DNA of 64,000 nt from the NCBI GenBank assembly GCA_030599585.1, contig JAUVNS010000006.1, forward strand, positions 236,430-300,429, read 5' to 3'. This document shows positions 3,517 to 47,502 of the stretch, one piece after another. Origin of the DNA: Promethearchaeota archaeon. Lineage in GTDB: Archaea; Asgardarchaeota; Lokiarchaeia; Sigyniarchaeales; SOKP01. The position numbers and the translations under genes are program-made. Position 1 is the stretch's first letter; each line of letters starts with the position of its first letter. The notes beneath the pieces are model-generated. The model was not told the origin of the DNA. It made no database searches and worked only from the letters and a program-made list of their open reading frames with translations.

Positions 3517-3925
3517 ATTGTTAACCCTGTTATTAGAAAAATAAGTTTTTATTACAATTAATATCTATCAAAACCTAATTGTAATATTTAAATTGCTCTA
3601 TTCAATTTTTGAAGTATTGAATTTTGATAGGATTAAAAGCATAAAAATCTCCTTTTCTATCGAATAAAAACATAAAAAAGTCGTAATAGAATTATACATC
3701 TGTTATGGTTACCGTAATTTATTATATAAGCACCACTTAAATTCTCAAAATTCATATTCCCTACATCAAAATTTCTGAATTCCTTATAATCGTAGAATTA
3801 ACAATGTTAAAGACTAATAATTCATTTCAGCTGCTTCGTACATCAAAAAGTAAATGTAAATTGCAATTTTTGAAAGATAGAAATCTAACTTTTACTGTTA
3901 ATCCAATTTAACATTTATAGAGGAA

Positions 3926-4198
3926 TTAAGTCAAATTTTCTGATAAATTTTTTATCAATTTAGAAATAGGATATGCTTCAATTACTCCGTAATTTAAGTA
4001 ACTTTTAAAATTTTCTTTTAATTTAGATTTAAATTCAGCATCGGTTTTAGCATTGATTCTACTGAATGGGTAGTTCTGAATTTCACTATTTTTATTGTAA
4101 ATTAAAAATTGGTATGAATATGTTAGGATTTTCTCGTATAATTGCGGTACCTTTATAGCGATATGAATTCTATATCCTTTAATCTTGAAATCTTCCAT
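3926..4198 (-). CDS. Small hypothetical protein, paralog 2
   Basis: 90-aa paralog of 3277-3516. Confidence 0.75.
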   Translation of the reverse strand: MEDFKIKGYRIHIAIKVPQLYEKILTYSYQFLIYNKNSEIQNYPFSRINAKTDAEFKSKLKENFKSYLNYGVIEAYPISKLIKNLSENLT

Positions 4199-4690
4199 TT
4201 TTTTAACCCTGTTATTAATAAGATTATAAAATGATTATTAAGTATCAAAATCAAATTGCAATATTTAAATAGCTATATTCTCTTTTTGAGGTATTGAATT
4301 TTTTTAGGGTTAATTGCGATAACAATCCTTTTCTTATCATATAATAAAGTGAAGGGCAACTTAAGAACTAAACAATTGCTATGGTAAACAGAATTAATTA
4401 ACTAAATTCCCGTTTGTTTATCTACTTGCCTAAACATTACATAAAATTTTACGATCTCATTGTAGTCGTGGAATAGAGAATATTAAAGGTTAAAAATTCA
4501 TATTTGTTGCCTCAATATTCAAAACTAAAATAATTATTGCTACTTTTGGAAGTTTGAGAGCTACAATTTGCTGTTAATCCAATTTATCAAGAAGTATACT
4601 TCAAAAATTAGATATAGCGATTTATATACCAGCTTCAAAATTATTAATATAGCATAATTTTAACACAATTTAACACAAGGTAGACTAAAA

Positions 4691-5821
4691 ATGAAAACAA
4701 AATACATTGTATTAGGACTTTTTGTTATAGGGATTCTATTTGTTAGTTCAAGTTTTGGATACGGTTTTGATGATAATGATGATCCACCTGTAGGAGATGA
4801 CGATAATGATGGTATTGACGACGAGTACGAGGATGAGAACAAAAGAAACATCGAAGTCTGGATAGGCGAAAATGTAATAGAAATAGCTTCAATAAAAAGA
4901 ACCGAAACGCAAAAAGATATCATCGATCTTAGAGTAGGATTTAATGATTACGGTATTTCCATTCGAGTTTCCTATGGGACATATATTATACATGCTCCAG
5001 AAGAACCAGAAGAACCACAAGAACCTGATAAACCTGATGAACCTGAGGAGCCTATAGAAGAAATAGTTGTTGCAAACGGAGAAAGTTATGAGGATACAAT
5101 TGAATATAAAATAACATTCGAAGTATTGTTCCGTGGTCTTATTGAATATGTTGATGTTAACGACAATGGTGTTTTAGAAGAAGATATTGACGAAATCGTT
5201 TCAGATTATGGATTCAATTCATTTCAACCAATTAATTATAGCCTTGAAAGCATTTCAGAAGATAGCAACAAACACTACATTTTGATCAACACTACTGACG
5301 GAATATTTGCGCTACACATTTTTCTCGTAGAGGAATTCGTGTATATCGATGAAAATCTGATCTCTCCTACTCAAGCAAAGATCGACATTGAAATTACAAA
5401 CTATGACTACGTAGATAACAACTCAAAGTTAGCTTTATTTACGAAACTATGGTCTGAGGAGACTTATAATGAAAGAGAGGAAACTGAAGACGAAGAAGAT
5501 GGATATGCAACTGACGAGAAAGAAGTATTCGTGGAAAACGATGTGTACTCAGGGTTTTTCAGTTGGAAAGAAACAGCGTTAGTTGATGGAGTTGAAATGG
5601 AGGTACTAGCAAGGAGAGTTACTCACGAGGAAGAAGAACTTCAAAGGTTATATCTATGTTATCCACGAGGTAACCATATATATCACGATCCTAAAATCGG
5701 TATTCTAATCGGATTACCTGTGGACGATTTTACACCAATAGTTATGACTGTGTCTATAATTTCAATAATTGGAGCAGCTACCATAGTGGGAATAGTACTT
5801 AGGAAAAAAAGAATCCTTTAA
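4691..5821 (+). CDS. Acidic secreted, membrane-anchored surface protein
   Basis: Signal peptide, DxDxDG Ca-binding-like motifs, (EEP)n linker, C-terminal TM helix plus RKKR. Confidence 0.75.
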   Translation: MKTKYIVLGLFVIGILFVSSSFGYGFDDNDDPPVGDDDNDGIDDEYEDENKRNIEVWIGENVIEIASIKRTETQKDIIDLRVGFNDYGISIRVSYGTYIIHAPEEPEEPQEPDKPDEPEEPIEEIVVANGESYEDTIEYKITFEVLFRGLIEYVDVNDNGVLEEDIDEIVSDYGFNSFQPINYSLESISEDSNKHYILINTTDGIFALHIFLVEEFVYIDENLISPTQAKIDIEITNYDYVDNNSKLALFTKLWSEETYNEREETEDEEDGYATDEKEVFVENDVYSGFFSWKETALVDGVEMEVLARRVTHEEEELQRLYLCYPRGNHIYHDPKIGILIGLPVDDFTPIVMTVSIISIIGAATIVGIVLRKKRIL

Positions 5822-40469: not shown

Positions 40470-40508
40470 CAAAGAAAATAAAAAAAAATAAGAAAATAAA
40501 AAAAAATC
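40470..40508 (-). terminator. U-rich terminator after the ncRNA array
   Basis: Plus strand has AAGAAAATAAAAAAAAAT twice, giving long T tracts on the minus strand directly after unit 1. Confidence 0.5.
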
Positions 40509-40721
40509 ATATCCCTGCTAACAATTCTCACATTTGGTTGCGACACTTCAGCGAAGGGTAGCGCCAGACTAGAAATACCTTTTAGGTCATTCACCGAAGG
40601 TTCCATGTCAAATGGGCTAAAATGTATCAGCGAACCGAAGTGAGTTGCGCGCAAACTGGTGATGTATGATAAGCAATTCTTCAACCACGGCGCAACACCG
40701 TAGCATTAAAGCCAAGGATAT
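40509..40721 (-). ncRNA. Retron-like msr-msd ncRNA, array unit 1 (most distal from RT)
   Basis: Terminal IR ATATCCCTG (40509-17) / CAAGGATAT (40713-21); candidate branch G at 40712; hairpin 40687-40701; long hairpin 40575-40627 with loop CCGAAGGTTCCAT; homologous to units 2 and 3. Confidence 0.75.
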
Positions 40722-40811
40722 TTTTATTGATTACTGATATTGAACGCCTTTACTTATGAATTTATTTATTTTTTTTTTTATATTCCAATCGCAATTAGAA
40801 AAATAGTCGTG

Positions 40812-40997
40812 ATCCCTGCTAACAATTCAAACATTTGGTTGTGACACTTCAGCAGAACGTAGTTAGTGGTACATTGAACCGAAGGATACATGTTTAAGGT
40901 ACCACTACCGTAGTGACGCGAATAGCGCGCAACCTGGTGGTGTATGATGGGCAAAATCTCAACTGTGGCGCAACACCACAGCATTAAAGCCAAGGAT
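40812..40997 (-). ncRNA. Retron-like msr-msd ncRNA, array unit 2
   Basis: Terminal IR ATCCCTG / CAAGGAT; candidate branch G at 40990; hairpin CTGTGG..CCACAG 40963-81; long hairpin TAGTGGTAC..GTACCACTA 40864-40907 with loop CCGAAGGATACAT. Confidence 0.78.
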
Positions 40998-41051
40998 TCT
41001 AACTTTAAAATTTTCTTCTTTATTGCCATAAATATTTTAGCGATTATAACC

Positions 41052-41237
41052 TCTCTGCTAACAATTCTCACATTGGGTTGTGACACTTCAGCAAAGTGGA
41101 GAACATGTGCTTCTTAACCGAAGGATACATATAACGAAGCACATGTACATGAAGCGGCGCGAATTGCGCACAACCTGGTGTCGTATGATTAGTAATTCCT
41201 CAACTACGGCGCAACGCCGGAGCATGAAAGCCAGAGA
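41052..41237 (-). ncRNA. Retron-like msr-msd ncRNA, array unit 3 (62 nt after the RT stop)
   Basis: Terminal IR TCTCTG / CAGAGA; candidate branch G at 41231; hairpin CGGCG-CAA-CGCCG 41207-19; perfect 11-bp stem ACATGTGCTTC / GAAGCACATGT 41103-41146 with loop CCGAAGGATACAT. Confidence 0.78.
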
Positions 41238-41299
41238 CTATTATAATCCTAAAAAATTTTTAGTATAAATCACCTCTAATCTTAGTATTTTAACTGAGT

Positions 41300-42764
41300 T
41301 TATTTTATAATCTTATTCGCTTCATTTATTAATTTTTGATATCTTTCAGAGTTTACACTTCTAACCCAAGATGTCATTCCTGCTATCTCATTTTTTTTTT
41401 CCTTTGGTATTTCTTTACTTGTTTTTAACAGGATATTAGCATTATGAATTGCTGCTCTATAATTTTTAATCCATTTACGTGGTAGTCCTAGTTCCGAATT
41501 ATTTAAAATGATTCCCGTAATTTTTTGTTGATTATTCTTTCTCAAGAAACGAGTTTTGGAATTGTTTATTTCAAAACCCTCTTCCTTTGTAATTTTATAA
41601 ATCAGACCGCAGAATCTTCCTAAATTCACTTCCTTTTGGTCTTTCAATGAAAAACTTAAATCGTCAGCATATCTCGAATAAGTAAGTCCAAATTTATCTG
41701 ATAATCCTTTTAATCTTTTATCTAATCTTTGACATATTATATTGGTAATCATAGGGCTTGCAGGTGAACCTTGTGGTAATATTCTTTTTGTAGTAGCGAC
41801 ATATTTGGTGGTTCCTCTTACTTCAAATTGCCAACCGCTCACAGTAAGTACAGAGCATGGAAAGGAGTGAGGAAATGTGACCAGAATATCCAAATGAATG
41901 AAACATACCCCGAACTCTTTCAAATGTAAGAGTTGGGAAAAAATCTTTTAGGTCCATGTTTAATATTAGAAAAGGCTGTTTAGGATGAGAGTTAGCTCCA
42001 GTTATCACAGACTTACCTTGAATAAATCCATGTGCATATTTTGAGGGAGGAATAATTGATAAAATTTTGTCAAGAATAATCCTCTGTGAGTTTTTTAATA
42101 AAGATTTTGGAGCAGCGATTGACCTCGTCCCTCCAGTTCTTTTAGGAATCTTATATCGATAATAATGATCTATGTCTACCACATCTCGGTGATAGGCAAG
42201 AAATCTAAGTTGCTTAAAATCGATATCGAGAAATCGATTCAGTTCATGTGCATCCTTTATAGTGGGAAGTTCGTTTTTCTTTAGCTTTTCTATATCTGTA
42301 TCAAATCTATAGAGCATTGATGAATAACCCTTCCCAATGAAAACAATTTCTTCTTTTTTTTTCTTTTGCCATGCTTCAGATCTTTCTTGTCTTTCTAACT
42401 CTTTTTGTCTTTTTCTCTCTTCACGCCGCTTAATTGATTCTAGCCACATTTCCTTAGCGATTTCTTTCCGAATCTTATCAATGTCATACGTTCCACCATG
42501 TTCTTTCTTAAGATCCATTAGTTTTTTTTTTATTTTGCGTTTACTTGTATACAGCTCCGTAATCTGCGTAATTAATTTATCTAAGTTATTCATTAATTTC
42601 TGTCTTTTCGTAAAATCCTCATTTGATTCGTTTTCTTGTTGATTATAGGGAGTTGGAAGATTTTTTGGCCAGAAACCATATTCTTGCATTTTCATAAAGG
42701 TAAATTGTTTTTTACCTAGTTGCTGTATTAACCTGCTATAATCACTTTTCGAGCTGTCAGTCAT
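41300..42764 (-). CDS. Retron-type reverse transcriptase with long N-terminal extension, split by a +1 frameshift at ~41825
   Basis: ORF 41823-42764 has IPKRTGGTRSIAAP, AHGF, region-X-like ITGANSH and DLKDFFP. ORF 41300-41923 has LPQGSPASP, YSRYADD and region-Y-like KITG. Removing one T gives a continuous ...CTYCERLAI-EVRGTTKYV... Confidence 0.9.
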
Positions 42765-44538
42765 CTACTCTCATAGCCTCCAATGACGATTCATCGTATC
42801 TTCTATTAGGAATAAGTGGTAATTCTAAATATGTAGAAGCATTAATGTATAAAGCTAAAATATGTTTGCAGGGAGCTGAAATATTTCTTGGACCACGTTT
42901 AAATGCTTTGCATCCACAATTAACCTTAACGATTTGTTTATCTTGATCAAGAGTTACCTCGGTATTAAATGTTTTATCTCGATACTGATATCTTCTACTT
43001 GTTGTTTGTGAAGAACTACTCTCAGCGATAGTTTCGAAATTCGCGGTTAATCTTAAATTGAACCTTTTCTCGGGTTTATTAATCTCATTCAATACATCTC
43101 TTTCTAATTGTGTAGTTTCATACAATTCTCTTGGTAATGGGATGTTTAAAAGTTGCCTATAACGGTAAACTTTACGGTTTAGGTCAAAATATGCCTCTCC
43201 TTTTCGAAATAAACTACCAATACTCGCTCTAATCTCTTGATCACTTGCACTTGATAATTCACTTTTAAGAGTTTCGAGTTCCATAACTCTATTTTTTTTT
43301 AATAAATTCCGCACGTTAGGATCTCCCTCTCCAATAAAACCGCCCATGATATTGAATGCTGTTCCTTTAACCCAATCGTTAGAAGACCATGAGGTAAATC
43401 CAATTGTCATATTTAAGAAGCCTAGATCCGCAACTAAAAAATGAGGCATTCCAAATCCAAATAGTTTTAATTTAAAGGATTTTGAGATCGGAATTATCTT
43501 TTCAACAATCAACCATCTTCTACGGCCCCAGATTCTCTCTATATGCTTTCTTTTTCCAGTATATATTGTAGATAATTCTAATTCCTTTTCCCATGGTTCA
43601 AATATTATCTTTACTCGTTTTTTAGGTTCAAAAACCCACTTCATTGCCCTAGGGCTTTTTCTGGCTTTATTTCGTCTTAAAAATGAACATATATCATATA
43701 AATCTACAGGAGTCAGTTCTATTTCAAATCCGTCTAAACTAGCAGCAGCAGATACTTGATTAAAACCCTTTATCCACGATTCGGGTAAATCTATTTTCTT
43801 TTCCACGTATTCAGGAGTAACCCCTGAATCTACAGTAATTCCTTCAGGATTAATTGACAATTCAACTTCATTATACGTTCGAAACCTCTCCATCTCTTTT
43901 GCGAGTTTTATAGAGAAATCTACATTAGTAGTCCCTAATTTAGGAGTTCCTTTAATTTCAAACTCATCCATTTTCACAGCTAGACATCCATATACTGACT
44001 CATCTAAAGAAAATGCTTCAAAGGAAACTTGATCGGGATGAACTGTTATTACAGGATCTAAAACATACCAGAGAGCCTGATCTCTATTGCGGATATAATG
44101 CCAAAATTGGCTCTCAATTTTATTATAATTCTGCCATATTCCCATATCATTAACTTTACTTTTCAAGCTCATGATTTTAGAGCGGATTTCTAAGATGTTT
44201 TTATCTACATCATCAAGTTGGACTTTTAACGTATCCATATCACCTTGTAATTCCTTCCTCCAAGTTTTTAGAAAACCTTCTTTATGAATCATCCGTTTTT
44301 CAATCTCTTGATTAAACCAGGCAAAAAAATCGCCATAATCTTTTTTCCTAATTCTTGAATCTGATATTACAATCTCTCTTAACATTAACATAGCATCTCT
44401 AAAAATTAATGGGTGCTTCAATCTTCCTACAAATGATACTTTCTCATCTCTAGTAAGATCGGGACTTAGACCGAGAGTTATATAATCCTCAGATTGAAGG
44501 CAAACGGATGGACTTGTATACTGATAACTAATTTCCAT
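42757..44538 (-). CDS. SWIM zinc-finger protein (retron-associated type)
   Basis: C-terminal CGC...PCKH SWIM motif; LDPVITVHPDQVSFEAFSLDES.Y, GTTNVDFS and EKKIDLPESWIKGF blocks; overlaps the RT start by 8 nt. Confidence 0.85.
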   Translation of the reverse strand: MEISYQYTSPSVCLQSEDYITLGLSPDLTRDEKVSFVGRLKHPLIFRDAMLMLREIVISDSRIRKKDYGDFFAWFNQEIEKRMIHKEGFLKTWRKELQGDMDTLKVQLDDVDKNILEIRSKIMSLKSKVNDMGIWQNYNKIESQFWHYIRNRDQALWYVLDPVITVHPDQVSFEAFSLDESVYGCLAVKMDEFEIKGTPKLGTTNVDFSIKLAKEMERFRTYNEVELSINPEGITVDSGVTPEYVEKKIDLPESWIKGFNQVSAAASLDGFEIELTPVDLYDICSFLRRNKARKSPRAMKWVFEPKKRVKIIFEPWEKELELSTIYTGKRKHIERIWGRRRWLIVEKIIPISKSFKLKLFGFGMPHFLVADLGFLNMTIGFTSWSSNDWVKGTAFNIMGGFIGEGDPNVRNLLKKNRVMELETLKSELSSASDQEIRASIGSLFRKGEAYFDLNRKVYRYRQLLNIPLPRELYETTQLERDVLNEINKPEKRFNLRLTANFETIAESSSSQTTSRRYQYRDKTFNTEVTLDQDKQIVKVNCGCKAFKRGPRNISAPCKHILALYINASTYLELPLIPNRRYDESSLEAMRVDD

Positions 44539-47502
44539 TTATATTACCTCCATTTTTATTTTAGCAAGAGCGACCAAGGCTCTTTCAGAATCTTTAATTA
44601 TATTGGATCCTCCGATTTCAAGGAGAATTTCTTCAATAATATCACAGTTTTCTTTATTTCTAAAAACAAACTCGGGAATGAGTTGATAAATCTTATCTTT
44701 ACTTTTGGATTTGAGATTAGGTAAAAATATAAGCGTTTTGATATAATATAAAAAGATTTCACTATTTCCATTTCCTAAATCATCTAAAATCCTATCAATC
44801 TTTTCCGAGATATATGACTTGATATCATGAGAAGCGTGTTCTAACATTTGGATAATTATGTTTTTAGGTAATTTTTCTCCATATATCTCGTCTAACTTGT
44901 TTAATGCATAAGTAATTACTTTTTTTTCAGGAGAATCAATAAGAATTGATAACGTTCTATTAAAAGCTTCTTTAGGTAAACCCTCAAAAACATTAATTGC
45001 GATCTCATTAAGGGTGGCTATTTCAGACTCAAACATTAATTGGAGGGTAGTGTACCGCTCCTTTACTTGATGAGTATTTCTTCTAACCATCTCTATCAAC
45101 GTTCTAACCATTTCTGGCGGCCCTATTTCTAATATTTCTAGAATTTCACTATCAGAGGGCAACAATTTTGTTGAAAGCGCTCTTAGCATATAAAGGATGA
45201 CCATTGAAGGAATTTTAGCTGAAAAATCAATTTCTATTTCCTTAATAATCATCAGTAAATCATCATAAGCAACTGAGAAGATAAGATTCTGCAAATAATC
45301 TGAAGTCCATTCCGGAAGTGTGGACTCATGTATCAGTAGATCTATTATTAAATTTAATAATTTAGCGCGTTCATTCTGTGGTATCTCATTTACTTTGTTG
45401 GTTGATTTATTTAACTGATCTAAGATTTCTTCCGGTAATTCAACTTGTTTCTTAAAGAATGAGTAAATCTTAGCAATTAATGCTTCTACAAATTTAAAAT
45501 AGTCAATTCCCTTTAATTCTCTTATTCGTTCTATTATAAATTCAAACCAATTCTCTACATTATTAAGTAAAAGCAAATCTACAACCATCTCAGGAGTGAT
45601 CTTTCCTTTTGTTCTATCAAAATACGCCCATGCTTGTTCATGCAACGTATTATCAGAACATTCCATAAGAGCAAACATTAAATTATGATCAAATGTGTCA
45701 GCTTTTGTTAGTAAATTTGTTAATTTTTCTCTAAATAGATTTCTTAATCTAACATGCTTTGATAAAGAAAGTTCTACCATCAGTTTGGGGGGTAATTTTC
45801 CTAAAATGTTATCTAGGTCAGAACGAGCATTTATTAAATTAAAGCAGAAATCTAATACGTAATGGACCTCACTTTCGGTTGCGATTTCTAAAACATCAGT
45901 GAAATATTTGTTCCAGAGTTCTAACTTCTTTTGATAGGTGTCAGCGGCTCTAATAGATTTAAAATCGATACTATCAATTCGTGGGGTATCACGATAATAA
46001 GAATAATGACGGGATCTAGAGCGGATACGTGGTGCAGTAGTGTAGTATCTTAGAATCTCATTAATACTATCGGGAATTTGTCGGCCCGAAACTAAATCAT
46101 AAGGCTTATAATTACTAAAAAAAGTTTTCACTGCTAGAATAAATAAATGCTCATCCCCTCGTGCTAATGAATCAAGAGTTCTTCTCACATATCGATGAAT
46201 ATAGTTGTAAAACCCTTGATAACCGCTTGCGAGCATAAAATAGTAGAATTTTGGAGTATCAATGTAGTAAGCAAGGGTTCCGAGTAGATCAGGAGCTTTG
46301 TAGACCTCCGCTTCTTGGATTAGATTCTTAAACATAATGTGATTAAGTCTGAAACCATCACTTATATGGCTAGGGCTAAATTTTAATGTAGGACCGATTG
46401 CTCCCCATTCCTGATCCCCCCACTTTTTTACGTAATCATTATAAGAAGTATTTTTTTCTCGTTTCTCTAAATAACGCCCAGCTCTTCCTCTTGGTTTATT
46501 ACCATGTACAGGGATTAAATCAATTTTAGCAACAATATTTGTAATTTCTTTAATCCTATTTTCTTTTAAAGTAGAATCAATTGAGTTAAGGTATATTTGA
46601 GCACATCTCTTTACACCTTCAGCAAATTTAGGCTCGGACCATCTAAATGTGAAATTAACTATTTTACTTGCTTCTTCTTTTAAAATGGGATTTTTTATTT
46701 TAGCTAACTCTAAGAACAAACCAGATACAACACCCTCACCCCCAATTTCTACTATTTTTTCATATATTGATTTTGGAGGTTTTTTTTCAACAAGATTTCT
46801 TAGGAATTTCTTTCTATTATAGAGACTTTGATTTGACATCAACTCAACGATTAAGTCTAAAAATACCTCGTCAGTTTTACTTAATTTTAATATTTCATTA
46901 GGATCCTTAGCAACCTTAAATTCTCCATTAAATACATCCCCCCTAATTTTATTTACTTTATCACGATAACTTAATTCTTTAAAATAAGGGAGAAAGAATT
47001 GATTTTCAGGACTCAAATTAATAAAGGAAGCTGCTTCTTTCAACTGTATTTCTCTGTAATATCCATGTCTTTGACTCTTATATTGTTTATATAAGCCTTT
47101 TCGATTTACTAGATACGAACGCCCTTTTACACGGCTTCTAGTACTATAATCATAATGTGATGGAGTGAGTAATTTTAAATCTAAAAATGGGGGTAAATGT
47201 TCGTGATTTCCTTGAAGAATAGTATATCCAACATAGTTTACGTCCTCACTCAATAAATTATATTCACCAGGACTTATTTCTGGCTTTAATTCTTCTTTTA
47301 AAGAATCATGATATTTCTCAATATCTTCTTGTGTAATTGTGATTCTACTACCTGAATCAATTTCGTGTGGACCAAAAAGTATAGCGAAACTGGGATTCAT
47401 TTTCTTATCCCAGCCCCAAAGTACTAATTTTCTAGTTGGATTATTTTGTTTTCCCCATCTTCGTCTTATTTGTTGAACTTTATCTATTACTGAATCATCC
47501 AT
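44539..47502 (-). CDS. Large alpha-helical (HEAT/ARM-like) repeat protein
   Basis: 987 aa with a Leu/Glu-rich amphipathic helical C-terminal half (e.g. LIDSPEKKV, MLEHASHDIK); stop codon abuts the SWIM start. Confidence 0.7.
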   Translation of the reverse strand: MDDSVIDKVQQIRRRWGKQNNPTRKLVLWGWDKKMNPSFAILFGPHEIDSGSRITITQEDIEKYHDSLKEELKPEISPGEYNLLSEDVNYVGYTILQGNHEHLPPFLDLKLLTPSHYDYSTRSRVKGRSYLVNRKGLYKQYKSQRHGYYREIQLKEAASFINLSPENQFFLPYFKELSYRDKVNKIRGDVFNGEFKVAKDPNEILKLSKTDEVFLDLIVELMSNQSLYNRKKFLRNLVEKKPPKSIYEKIVEIGGEGVVSGLFLELAKIKNPILKEEASKIVNFTFRWSEPKFAEGVKRCAQIYLNSIDSTLKENRIKEITNIVAKIDLIPVHGNKPRGRAGRYLEKREKNTSYNDYVKKWGDQEWGAIGPTLKFSPSHISDGFRLNHIMFKNLIQEAEVYKAPDLLGTLAYYIDTPKFYYFMLASGYQGFYNYIHRYVRRTLDSLARGDEHLFILAVKTFFSNYKPYDLVSGRQIPDSINEILRYYTTAPRIRSRSRHYSYYRDTPRIDSIDFKSIRAADTYQKKLELWNKYFTDVLEIATESEVHYVLDFCFNLINARSDLDNILGKLPPKLMVELSLSKHVRLRNLFREKLTNLLTKADTFDHNLMFALMECSDNTLHEQAWAYFDRTKGKITPEMVVDLLLLNNVENWFEFIIERIRELKGIDYFKFVEALIAKIYSFFKKQVELPEEILDQLNKSTNKVNEIPQNERAKLLNLIIDLLIHESTLPEWTSDYLQNLIFSVAYDDLLMIIKEIEIDFSAKIPSMVILYMLRALSTKLLPSDSEILEILEIGPPEMVRTLIEMVRRNTHQVKERYTTLQLMFESEIATLNEIAINVFEGLPKEAFNRTLSILIDSPEKKVITYALNKLDEIYGEKLPKNIIIQMLEHASHDIKSYISEKIDRILDDLGNGNSEIFLYYIKTLIFLPNLKSKSKDKIYQLIPEFVFRNKENCDIIEEILLEIGGSNIIKDSERALVALAKIKMEVI

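Follow-up and report, generated by a model that had tools for sequence, protein, structure and literature searches.

Type XIII retrons include Mx162, the first retron to be discovered. The type corresponds to reverse transcriptase (RT) clade 10 and has been catalogued for a 'Firmicutes' group and for Retron-Mxa1/Mx162, Mxa2/Mx65, Sau1/Sa163 and Nex2/Ne144, in which the RT is accompanied by a SWIM protein and a HEAT/ARM or WGR-type protein (Mestre et al. 2020, PMC7736814). The non-coding RNA (ncRNA) of retrons is built to a common plan, in which terminal repeats (a1 and a2) and opposing G residues accompany two hairpins, a short one in msr and a long one in msd, and the part that is reverse transcribed is the 3' long hairpin between msr and a2 (PMC7736814). 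The main text of that study makes no mention of multiple ncRNA copies. In Retron-Sen2, Dam methylates a GATC duplex in the hairpin of the multicopy single-stranded DNA (msDNA), triggering the toxin, and the specificity of the trigger depends on the hairpin sequence (bioRxiv 10.1101/2020.06.22.160242). Tandem msr-msd units served by one RT, with different msd payloads on a constant scaffold, have been engineered as multitrons (bioRxiv 10.1101/2023.07.17.549397). Here we analyze a window of 64,000 nt from the Promethearchaeota archaeon assembly GCA_030599585.1 (contig JAUVNS010000006.1, 236,430-300,429, forward strand; positions below are window coordinates), in which three homologous units of about 200 nt, each with a central hairpin of variable stem and constant loop, follow a predicted type XIII retron operon. 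The locus resembles the catalogued type XIII retrons in its RT, SWIM and HEAT/ARM or WGR-type proteins and in an ncRNA with a1/a2 repeats, opposing G residues and short msr and long msd hairpins, but differs from them in having three ncRNA copies (one to six in relatives), in their position after the RT instead of directly upstream, and in its Asgard host.

The three units (U1, 40505-40727; U2, 40806-41005; U3, 41045-41247; together 40505-41247) are likely to be complete retron msr-msd ncRNA genes, transcribed from the minus strand after the type XIII operon, the variable-stem hairpin of each being the msd stem-loop. They adjoin a retron RT gene, which ends 53 nt from U3, and carry the a1/a2 repeats, the G pair, the short msr hairpin and the long msd hairpin expected of msr-msd genes. 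Against the covariance model CM R1, U3, the first unit after the RT stop, scored 88 bits (E ~1e-18, model positions 1-203), U2 92 bits (E ~1e-19) and U1, the msd hairpin of which is enlarged and imperfect, 51 bits (E ~9e-10). Feature coordinates were read off the covariance-model alignment. In U3, a1 lies at 41232-41245, the candidate branching G at 41231, the msr hairpin at 41203-41223, the msd hairpin region at 41091-41160, the opposing G at 41058 and a2 at 41045-41057. The same features are located at 40991-41003, 40990, 40962-40982, 40852-40919, 40819 and 40806-40818 in U2, and at 40713-40725, 40712, 40684-40704, 40551-40641, 40518 and 40505-40517 in U1. General searches passed the units over: Rfam, at permissive E-values, returned only chance-level snoRNA and miRNA matches in the unit region, and Tandem Repeats Finder did not report the units because they are too diverged and irregular in period.

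To describe the architecture across the family, relatives were gathered through the SWIM protein (45 loci) and the unit was searched for in 46 sources, with a profile of the three window units and then with the covariance model. The unit was found in 35 of the 46 sources, in 68 copies; the alignment statistics that follow refer to the 65 distinct units, which are related by descent. Read in the window minus sense, the RNA begins with a1 and a G that never varies, continues with a UUG-looped hairpin of 9 bp, a linker and an enclosing helix with the long hairpin, and ends with a second linker, a second invariant G and a2. The a1/a2 helix (13 bp) is paired in 97% of cells with both sides changed in 11 of 13 pairs, and a1/a2 of U3 shows compensatory changes relative to U1 and U2. 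The G directly after a1 and the opposing G before a2 are both invariant (63/63 units); by analogy with known retrons, the G beside a1 would be the branch point. The msr hairpin, GGYG-UUG-CRCC, is paired over 9 bp in 99% of cells. The long msd hairpin consists of an outer and an inner helix (11-26 bp, median 23) topped by a loop of about 20 nt, and all 16 pairs of its inner stem covary and occur as all four Watson-Crick types. Overall, 95% of cells were paired, compared with 71% after shuffling and 35-46% when the partners were slid, and both sides had changed in 47 of 58 pairs.

The RNA is encoded on the minus strand. RNAalifold gave -35 kcal/mol for the minus sense and -13.5 kcal/mol for the plus sense; a plus-strand RNA is ruled out by this difference in energy and by A.C mismatches where the minus strand has G.U pairs. 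In the minus sense, G.U cells outnumbered A.C cells 43:6 in the a1/a2 helix and 122:0 in the msr hairpin. The inner msd stem revealed the opposite polarity, with 6 G.U against 26 A.C cells of the model alignment in the RNA sense, that is, 26 G.T cells in the sense of the complementary DNA (cDNA), and isolated 1x1 mismatches in the msd stem comprised 18 G.T and 1 A.C in the cDNA sense; these wobble counts are of non-independent events, given the kinship of the units. Read most simply, the data suggest that selection has acted on the stem as the complementary DNA strand, the msDNA, and the reversed polarity would be a footprint of reverse transcription. Wobble polarity may serve as a sequence-only signature by which the segment of a retron RNA that functions as DNA can be recognised.

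The operon lies on the minus strand immediately upstream of the units and is tightly packed. Its first gene encodes a helical-repeat protein of 987 aa (44539-47502) with weak PADLOC matches to WGR_XIII (2.1e-15) and HEAT-ARM_XIII (4.7e-6), a position that is also occupied in the homologous loci. It is followed by a SWIM zinc-finger protein of 593 aa (42757-44538; PADLOC SWIM_XIII, E 3.4e-169; Pfam SWIM, E 5.4e-5) and by the RT (41300-42764), for which RT_XIII was the best-scoring RT model (E 5.5e-82 for the N-terminal part and 1e-63 for the C-terminal part). By these protein matches the operon is assigned to the type XIII retron systems, which combine a clade-10 RT with a SWIM-finger protein and as a rule have a HEAT/ARM or WGR-like protein in front of it. 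A group II intron was ruled out because the SWIM gene overlaps the RT start and leaves no room for intron domains I-IV. In the other Asgard metagenome-assembled genome (MAG) that carries the system (L009, 2972-8011), the first operon gene encodes 1679 aa, compared with 987 aa in the window and 919-937 aa in Bacillota, and contains an extra module.

The central hairpins of the window, given here in the cDNA (msDNA) sense on the plus strand, lie at 40575-40627 in U1 (arms 40575-40591 and 40611-40627), 40864-40907 in U2 (arms 40864-40879 and 40892-40907) and 41103-41146 in U3 (arms 41103-41113 and 41136-41146). Across the whole window, CCGAAGGWTMCAT, the loop motif, was found at three places and no others, always on the plus strand (40594-40606, 40879-40891 and 41118-41130); shuffled sequences contained it 0.27 times on average and none of 100 shuffles reached three. 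The hairpin sequences, their coordinates and the three shared loops were thus as reported in a first-pass annotation of this DNA, which had also proposed that all three stems keep their pairing. Folded as single-stranded DNA in the plus sense, this was borne out for U3 (z = -4.7, 0/200 shuffles as stable), the stem of which is a perfect duplex of 11 bp, and for U2 (z = -3.5, 1/200), while U1 was marginal (z = -1.4, 18/200), with two mismatches and one G.T in the stem and an extra insertion in the unit. Of the two palindromes noted in the same annotation, that of U3, ACATGT, is found in either arm and forms a genuine palindrome in the duplex; GGTACC occurs only once, in the 3' arm of U2 (40898-40903), opposite GGTACA with an A.G mismatch, and is therefore not a duplex palindrome.

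DNA mini-hairpins of the d(GCGNAGC) type, with a GNA trinucleotide loop, and cUNCGg RNA tetraloops are hyperstable caps. The apical loop of the family reads CC-NNA-GG in 55 of the 65 units (GAA 20, GCA 15, GTA 14, AAA 4, ATA 1, TCA 1), a 4-nt version is present in 7 and the loop is degenerate in 3. The form G-N-A with a free middle base accounts for 49 units, and a conserved segment (A/C)T(A/C)C(T/A)(G/T)T lies downstream of CC-GNA-GG. What is conserved at the DNA level is a triloop, GNA, closed by a CC/GG stem, and its RNA equivalent is cUNCGg. The loop described in the first-pass annotation as a constant C-GAA-G is hence conserved in homologues, with the amendment that its middle base is free. 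It resembles the described caps in that CC-GNA-GG in the cDNA is CC-UNC-GG in the RNA with the middle base free; it differs from them in sitting within a loop of about 20 nt and in being followed by the extra conserved segment, and it is known from its sequence alone. The loop by itself does not tell DNA from RNA, because GNA in the cDNA is the cUNCGg tetraloop in the RNA template. The earlier view of the hairpin as single-stranded DNA is supported by the stem, whose wobbles take the form G.T in the complement of the RNA, as would fit a hairpin that works as reverse-transcribed DNA.

The best relative of the SWIM protein was found in a Promethearchaeota MAG (58% identity), the others being from Bacillota, mostly Lachnospiraceae and Clostridia (51-56%). 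The unit itself was present in Bacillota and in the second Promethearchaeota MAG, L009, with the same operon. A gapped-pattern search added 38 metagenome contigs, many with the order helical-repeat protein, SWIM, RT and unit or units; the metagenome contig L081 carries a copy of U1 that is 97% identical. Comparison of the arrays across the 35 sources gave one to six units per locus, with at least two units at 12 loci and a single unit at 23 of 35. In the window, L009, L011-L013, L020, L033 and L053, the array follows the RT downstream and shares its strand; in L022, L028, L034, L036, L037, L041, L042 and other Lachnospiraceae-type loci (about 3600-5100), it lies upstream of the first gene in antisense (divergent) orientation. 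As judged from these arrangements, the array was inverted and moved in the course of evolution, and at least in the Lachnospiraceae-type loci, where it is upstream and antisense, it must possess its own promoter. The window genome contains an archaeal 16S rRNA and four actin-family genes (best 442 bits), and a unit copy on its contig C20 adjoins a Ras-family GTPase gene; the host is therefore an Asgard archaeon and the element does not sit on a bacterial contaminant contig. The covariance model, run with strict filters on at most 16 candidates per genome, detected no unit in 150 other genomes of the phylum, 12 of them of the same genus. The patchy distribution in the phylum together with the Bacillota relatives indicates horizontal transfer, and the sequence relationships point to a transfer of the retron system between domains, which would be an added case for an RT-based system.

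Within arrays the scaffold is constant and the stems are replaced. For 62 pairs of units from the same array, mean divergence was 13% in the scaffold and 45%, near saturation, in the stem arms. In unit pairs of L042 (units 3927 and 4308), L036, L039 and L009, the 5' scaffold (about 87 nt) and the 3' scaffold (about 47 nt) are 97-100% identical, and everything between CUCGC and GCUAAAG except the loop has been replaced, with sharp boundaries; units 3927 and 4308 of L042 are about 100% identical outside the arms. This supports the proposal, made in the first-pass annotation, of a constant scaffold with a diversified duplex. Syntenic orthologues (L022, L028 and L034) keep their stems, which are 0-16% diverged, the scaffolds differing by 7-13%; several ortholog pairs, whose model-aligned divergences were inflated by register shifts, were recomputed by pairwise alignment, and a clustering of stems by single linkage at 75% identity, which lumped most of them, was discarded. 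Arms are thus replaced within arrays and kept between orthologues. Although the scaffold of L042:4308 is identical to that of its neighbour, its ACAATAG-type stem is shared with L028, L034 and L022. A U2-type stem (core TAGTGGTAC / GTACCACTA) was found with compensatory changes and different neighbouring units in L099 and L092, and the close relatives L041 and L042 carry three and four units, respectively. Given this persistence of stems together with the identity of scaffolds, the stem is the stable identity of a unit, the scaffolds having been homogenised or the units reshuffled. The stems had been described as unrelated in sequence; the divergence of the arms agrees with this, but not without exception across the family, in which GTAC or CT-A is a recurring motif close to the inner stem's base. 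GTAC, the only palindrome to recur, was counted 10 times in 34 distinct inner stems, where about 2 were expected, mostly near the stem base and including U2 of the window; this recurrence may reflect shared ancestry or a recognised site.

If the units work as canonical retron ncRNAs do, a1 and a2 would pair in the folded RNA, the RT would recognise the short msr hairpin (GGYG-UUG-CRCC) and prime on the 2'-OH of the invariant G beside a1, and the msd part including the long hairpin would be copied into msDNA, after which the hairpin would act as DNA. The constant apical loop, the CC-GNA-GG mini-hairpin followed by (A/C)T(A/C)C, could be a common handle or folding nucleus for the RT, SWIM or helical-repeat proteins, with the 11-26 bp stem as the unit-specific module. 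One RT would then probably make several different small DNAs, a small panel of msDNAs differing only in their duplex. Most likely, by analogy with retrons whose msDNA hairpin undergoes modification or degradation by DNA-targeting proteins of phages, stem diversity would widen what the system can sense. The earlier suggestion that the stems are decoy sites for viral DNA-binding or DNA-modifying proteins has its precedent in Retron-Sen2, in which an invader enzyme acts on a duplex site in the msDNA hairpin (bioRxiv 10.1101/2020.06.22.160242; 10.64898/2026.10.13.758329), as one might here. However, the stems are not enriched in palindromes. Retron-Sen2 is unlike the present system in being of another retron type, with the effector RcaT and a single msDNA, and GATC is not general in the stems described here. 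Taken to its full extent, the analogy would make the array a natural multiplexed sensor, in which distinct duplexes on a common protein-binding handle monitor several DNA-binding or DNA-modifying activities of invaders, the stems are held apart by selection, the scaffolds are made uniform through gene conversion or the exchange of cassettes, and the system has crossed between Bacillota and Asgard archaea; we put this forward tentatively, as a possible but rather doubtful scheme.

Several points weigh against the assignment of the units to functional retron ncRNAs. One frameshift of 1 nt, at about 41824-41826, divides the RT gene of the window between two reading frames: in a tblastn search with the intact 486-aa RT of L009, residues 1-313 aligned in one frame and 314-486 in the next, at 58-63% identity and with no other stops. 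Sequencing error, recent decay into a pseudogene and recoding are all conceivable causes of the break, and, with the weak U1 hairpin, the local retron copy may have lost its activity or be in decay. One alignment in L099, the closest metagenome relative, spans RT residues 116-485, across the frameshift point. The canonical cassette has one ncRNA gene upstream of the RT on the same strand; here three units lie downstream of the RT on that strand, and the Lachnospiraceae-type loci also depart from the textbook order msr-msd-RT. This is a difference of layout and not of parts. The relatedness of the units, stated above with the wobble counts, and the form of the loop in the RNA sense, C(UNCG)G with N free, a classic stable tetraloop, belong on the same side of the balance. 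We also found no function or mechanism for type XIII retrons in the literature accessible to us, and msDNA synthesis and an antiviral defence role, like the roles of the loop and of stem diversity, are what we infer and not what we observed.

The tetraloop would suit a hairpin that escapes reverse transcription and works purely as RNA, for example as a protein-binding hairpin with a cUNCGg loop. We consider this improbable, since the wobbles of the inner stem favour the cDNA strand (26:6 and 18:1) while those of all other helices favour the RNA strand, the same positions are A.C mismatches in the RNA, and the 3' long hairpin is the part that retrons reverse transcribe (PMC7736814). That the units are a mobile repeat resembling miniature inverted-repeat transposable elements (MITEs), lying beside the RT operon by chance, is hardly credible. 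The unit does have terminal inverted repeats, and at least six further contigs of this genome hold partial copies of 96-98% identity, but these scattered copies are truncated and lack the terminal repeats; the unit moreover accompanies one and the same operon in Bacillota, in Asgard MAGs and in metagenomes, was not found in the 150 other genomes of the phylum, and shows the strand-specific G.U pairs and covariation typical of functional RNA. The idea that the stems are spacer-like specificity elements taken from invaders, which would guide the system to matching nucleic acid, had been raised in the first-pass annotation and is now disfavoured to the point of being very improbable. The layout of constant scaffold and variable insert, with a unit number that differs between close relatives (three in L041 and four in L042), has a superficial likeness to the repeats and spacers of CRISPR arrays, but the arms of each insert are self-complementary, which acquisition of foreign DNA would not yield, and syntenic orthologues in different species keep their stems, with changes that are compensatory. 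Exact matches in IMG/VR to the 16-17-mers of the window stems numbered 51, 10 and 1, roughly what chance gives by comparison with 25 for a shuffled 16-mer, and none extended beyond 19 nt; in the own genome the stems matched only unit copies and two chance-level 14-15-mers. Unlike CRISPR arrays, the present arrays thus have self-complementary inserts that are kept between species, with no detectable protospacers and no acquisition machinery.

A role for the stems through pairing and length only, in RT processivity, termination or assembly of the complex, with their diversity as drift under a pairing constraint and no part in sensing, is unlikely in our view, though with points in its favour. 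All four Watson-Crick pairs occur at each position of the stem, on whose sequence the family as a whole sets no constraint, palindromes show no enrichment there (4-mers, 32 against 28.7 expected, p = 0.28; 6-mers, 10 against 6.1, p = 0.09), the slow change of orthologous stems could be explained by the pairing constraint alone, and single-unit loci are in the majority. Drift alone does not, however, account for scaffolds of about 100% identity beside unrelated arms, which need maintenance against gene conversion or replacement of cassettes, nor for stem types such as the ACAATAG stem of L042, L028, L034 and L022 that persist across species while their flanks are homogenised. The pairing explanation may possibly be extended by selection for orthogonal stems that avoid mispairing between tandem units and recombination between repeats; against this, the a1/a2 and H3 helices are near-identical between neighbouring units, so that orthogonality is evidently unneeded for the folding of those helices.

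Variation of msd stems between retrons is textbook knowledge, type XIII has been catalogued and arrays have been engineered. What the present analysis adds to the retron assignment is the GNA loop rule, the switch of wobble polarity between RNA and cDNA as measured over 65 units, the abrupt edges of the modules in units with identical scaffolds, the contrast between orthologous and paralogous stems, and the negative palindrome and viral-match tests. In the literature accessible to us we came across no account of naturally occurring multi-copy arrays of retron ncRNA in which the stems are cassette-like and the apical loop is fixed, and a prior one is possible. The multitrons are man-made for genome editing and carry the donor in the msd loop, whereas here the array is natural and the variable part is the stem itself; a multitron design would thus appear to be already in use in nature. 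The purpose of the msDNA stem is an open question in retron biology, for which natural arrays offer a ready-made comparative experiment: their units share scaffold, loop and proteins and differ in the duplex alone, and the stems are distinct within a genome and conserved between species. Cultured carriers include Clostridium sp. MD294/ASF356 (L034, four units) and Pseudobacteroides cellulosolvens (L012, one unit), which makes the function of the stem open to direct test by swaps.

Other contigs of the window genome carry orphan or truncated copies of U2 and U3. These copies, at C20:147756-147957, C34:293808-293916, C32:179571-179666, C16:13063-13138, C39:1385-1429 and C22:61331-61376, are 96-98% identical including the stems and have no retron operon. 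All orphan copies fall within unit positions 9-178, that is, between a1 and a2. The C20 copy is nearly full length, with a1 and the base of the msr hairpin degenerate. The orphan copies may be decayed arrays or cDNA-derived insertions.

A second sub-family of the unit is present at C9:328238-328502 and C12:31545-31724, in which the loop (ACCGAAGGATTCATAT) and the enclosing helix are retained around a different stem. It has no msr hairpin and no clear a1/a2, shows a partial tandem duplication and has no RT nearby; its neighbours are genes for a helix-turn-helix (HTH) protein and a helix-hairpin-helix (HhH) protein. The genome also encodes a second, intact retron-type RT of 382 aa (C15:45008-46156; L062:6009-7157), for which RT_XIII was again the best PADLOC model (E 1.4e-79). 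The covariance model detected no unit near this gene, and it has no SWIM or helical-repeat partner. Its product is about 37% identical to the RT of the window, and the gene adjoins a RadA/Rad51 gene.

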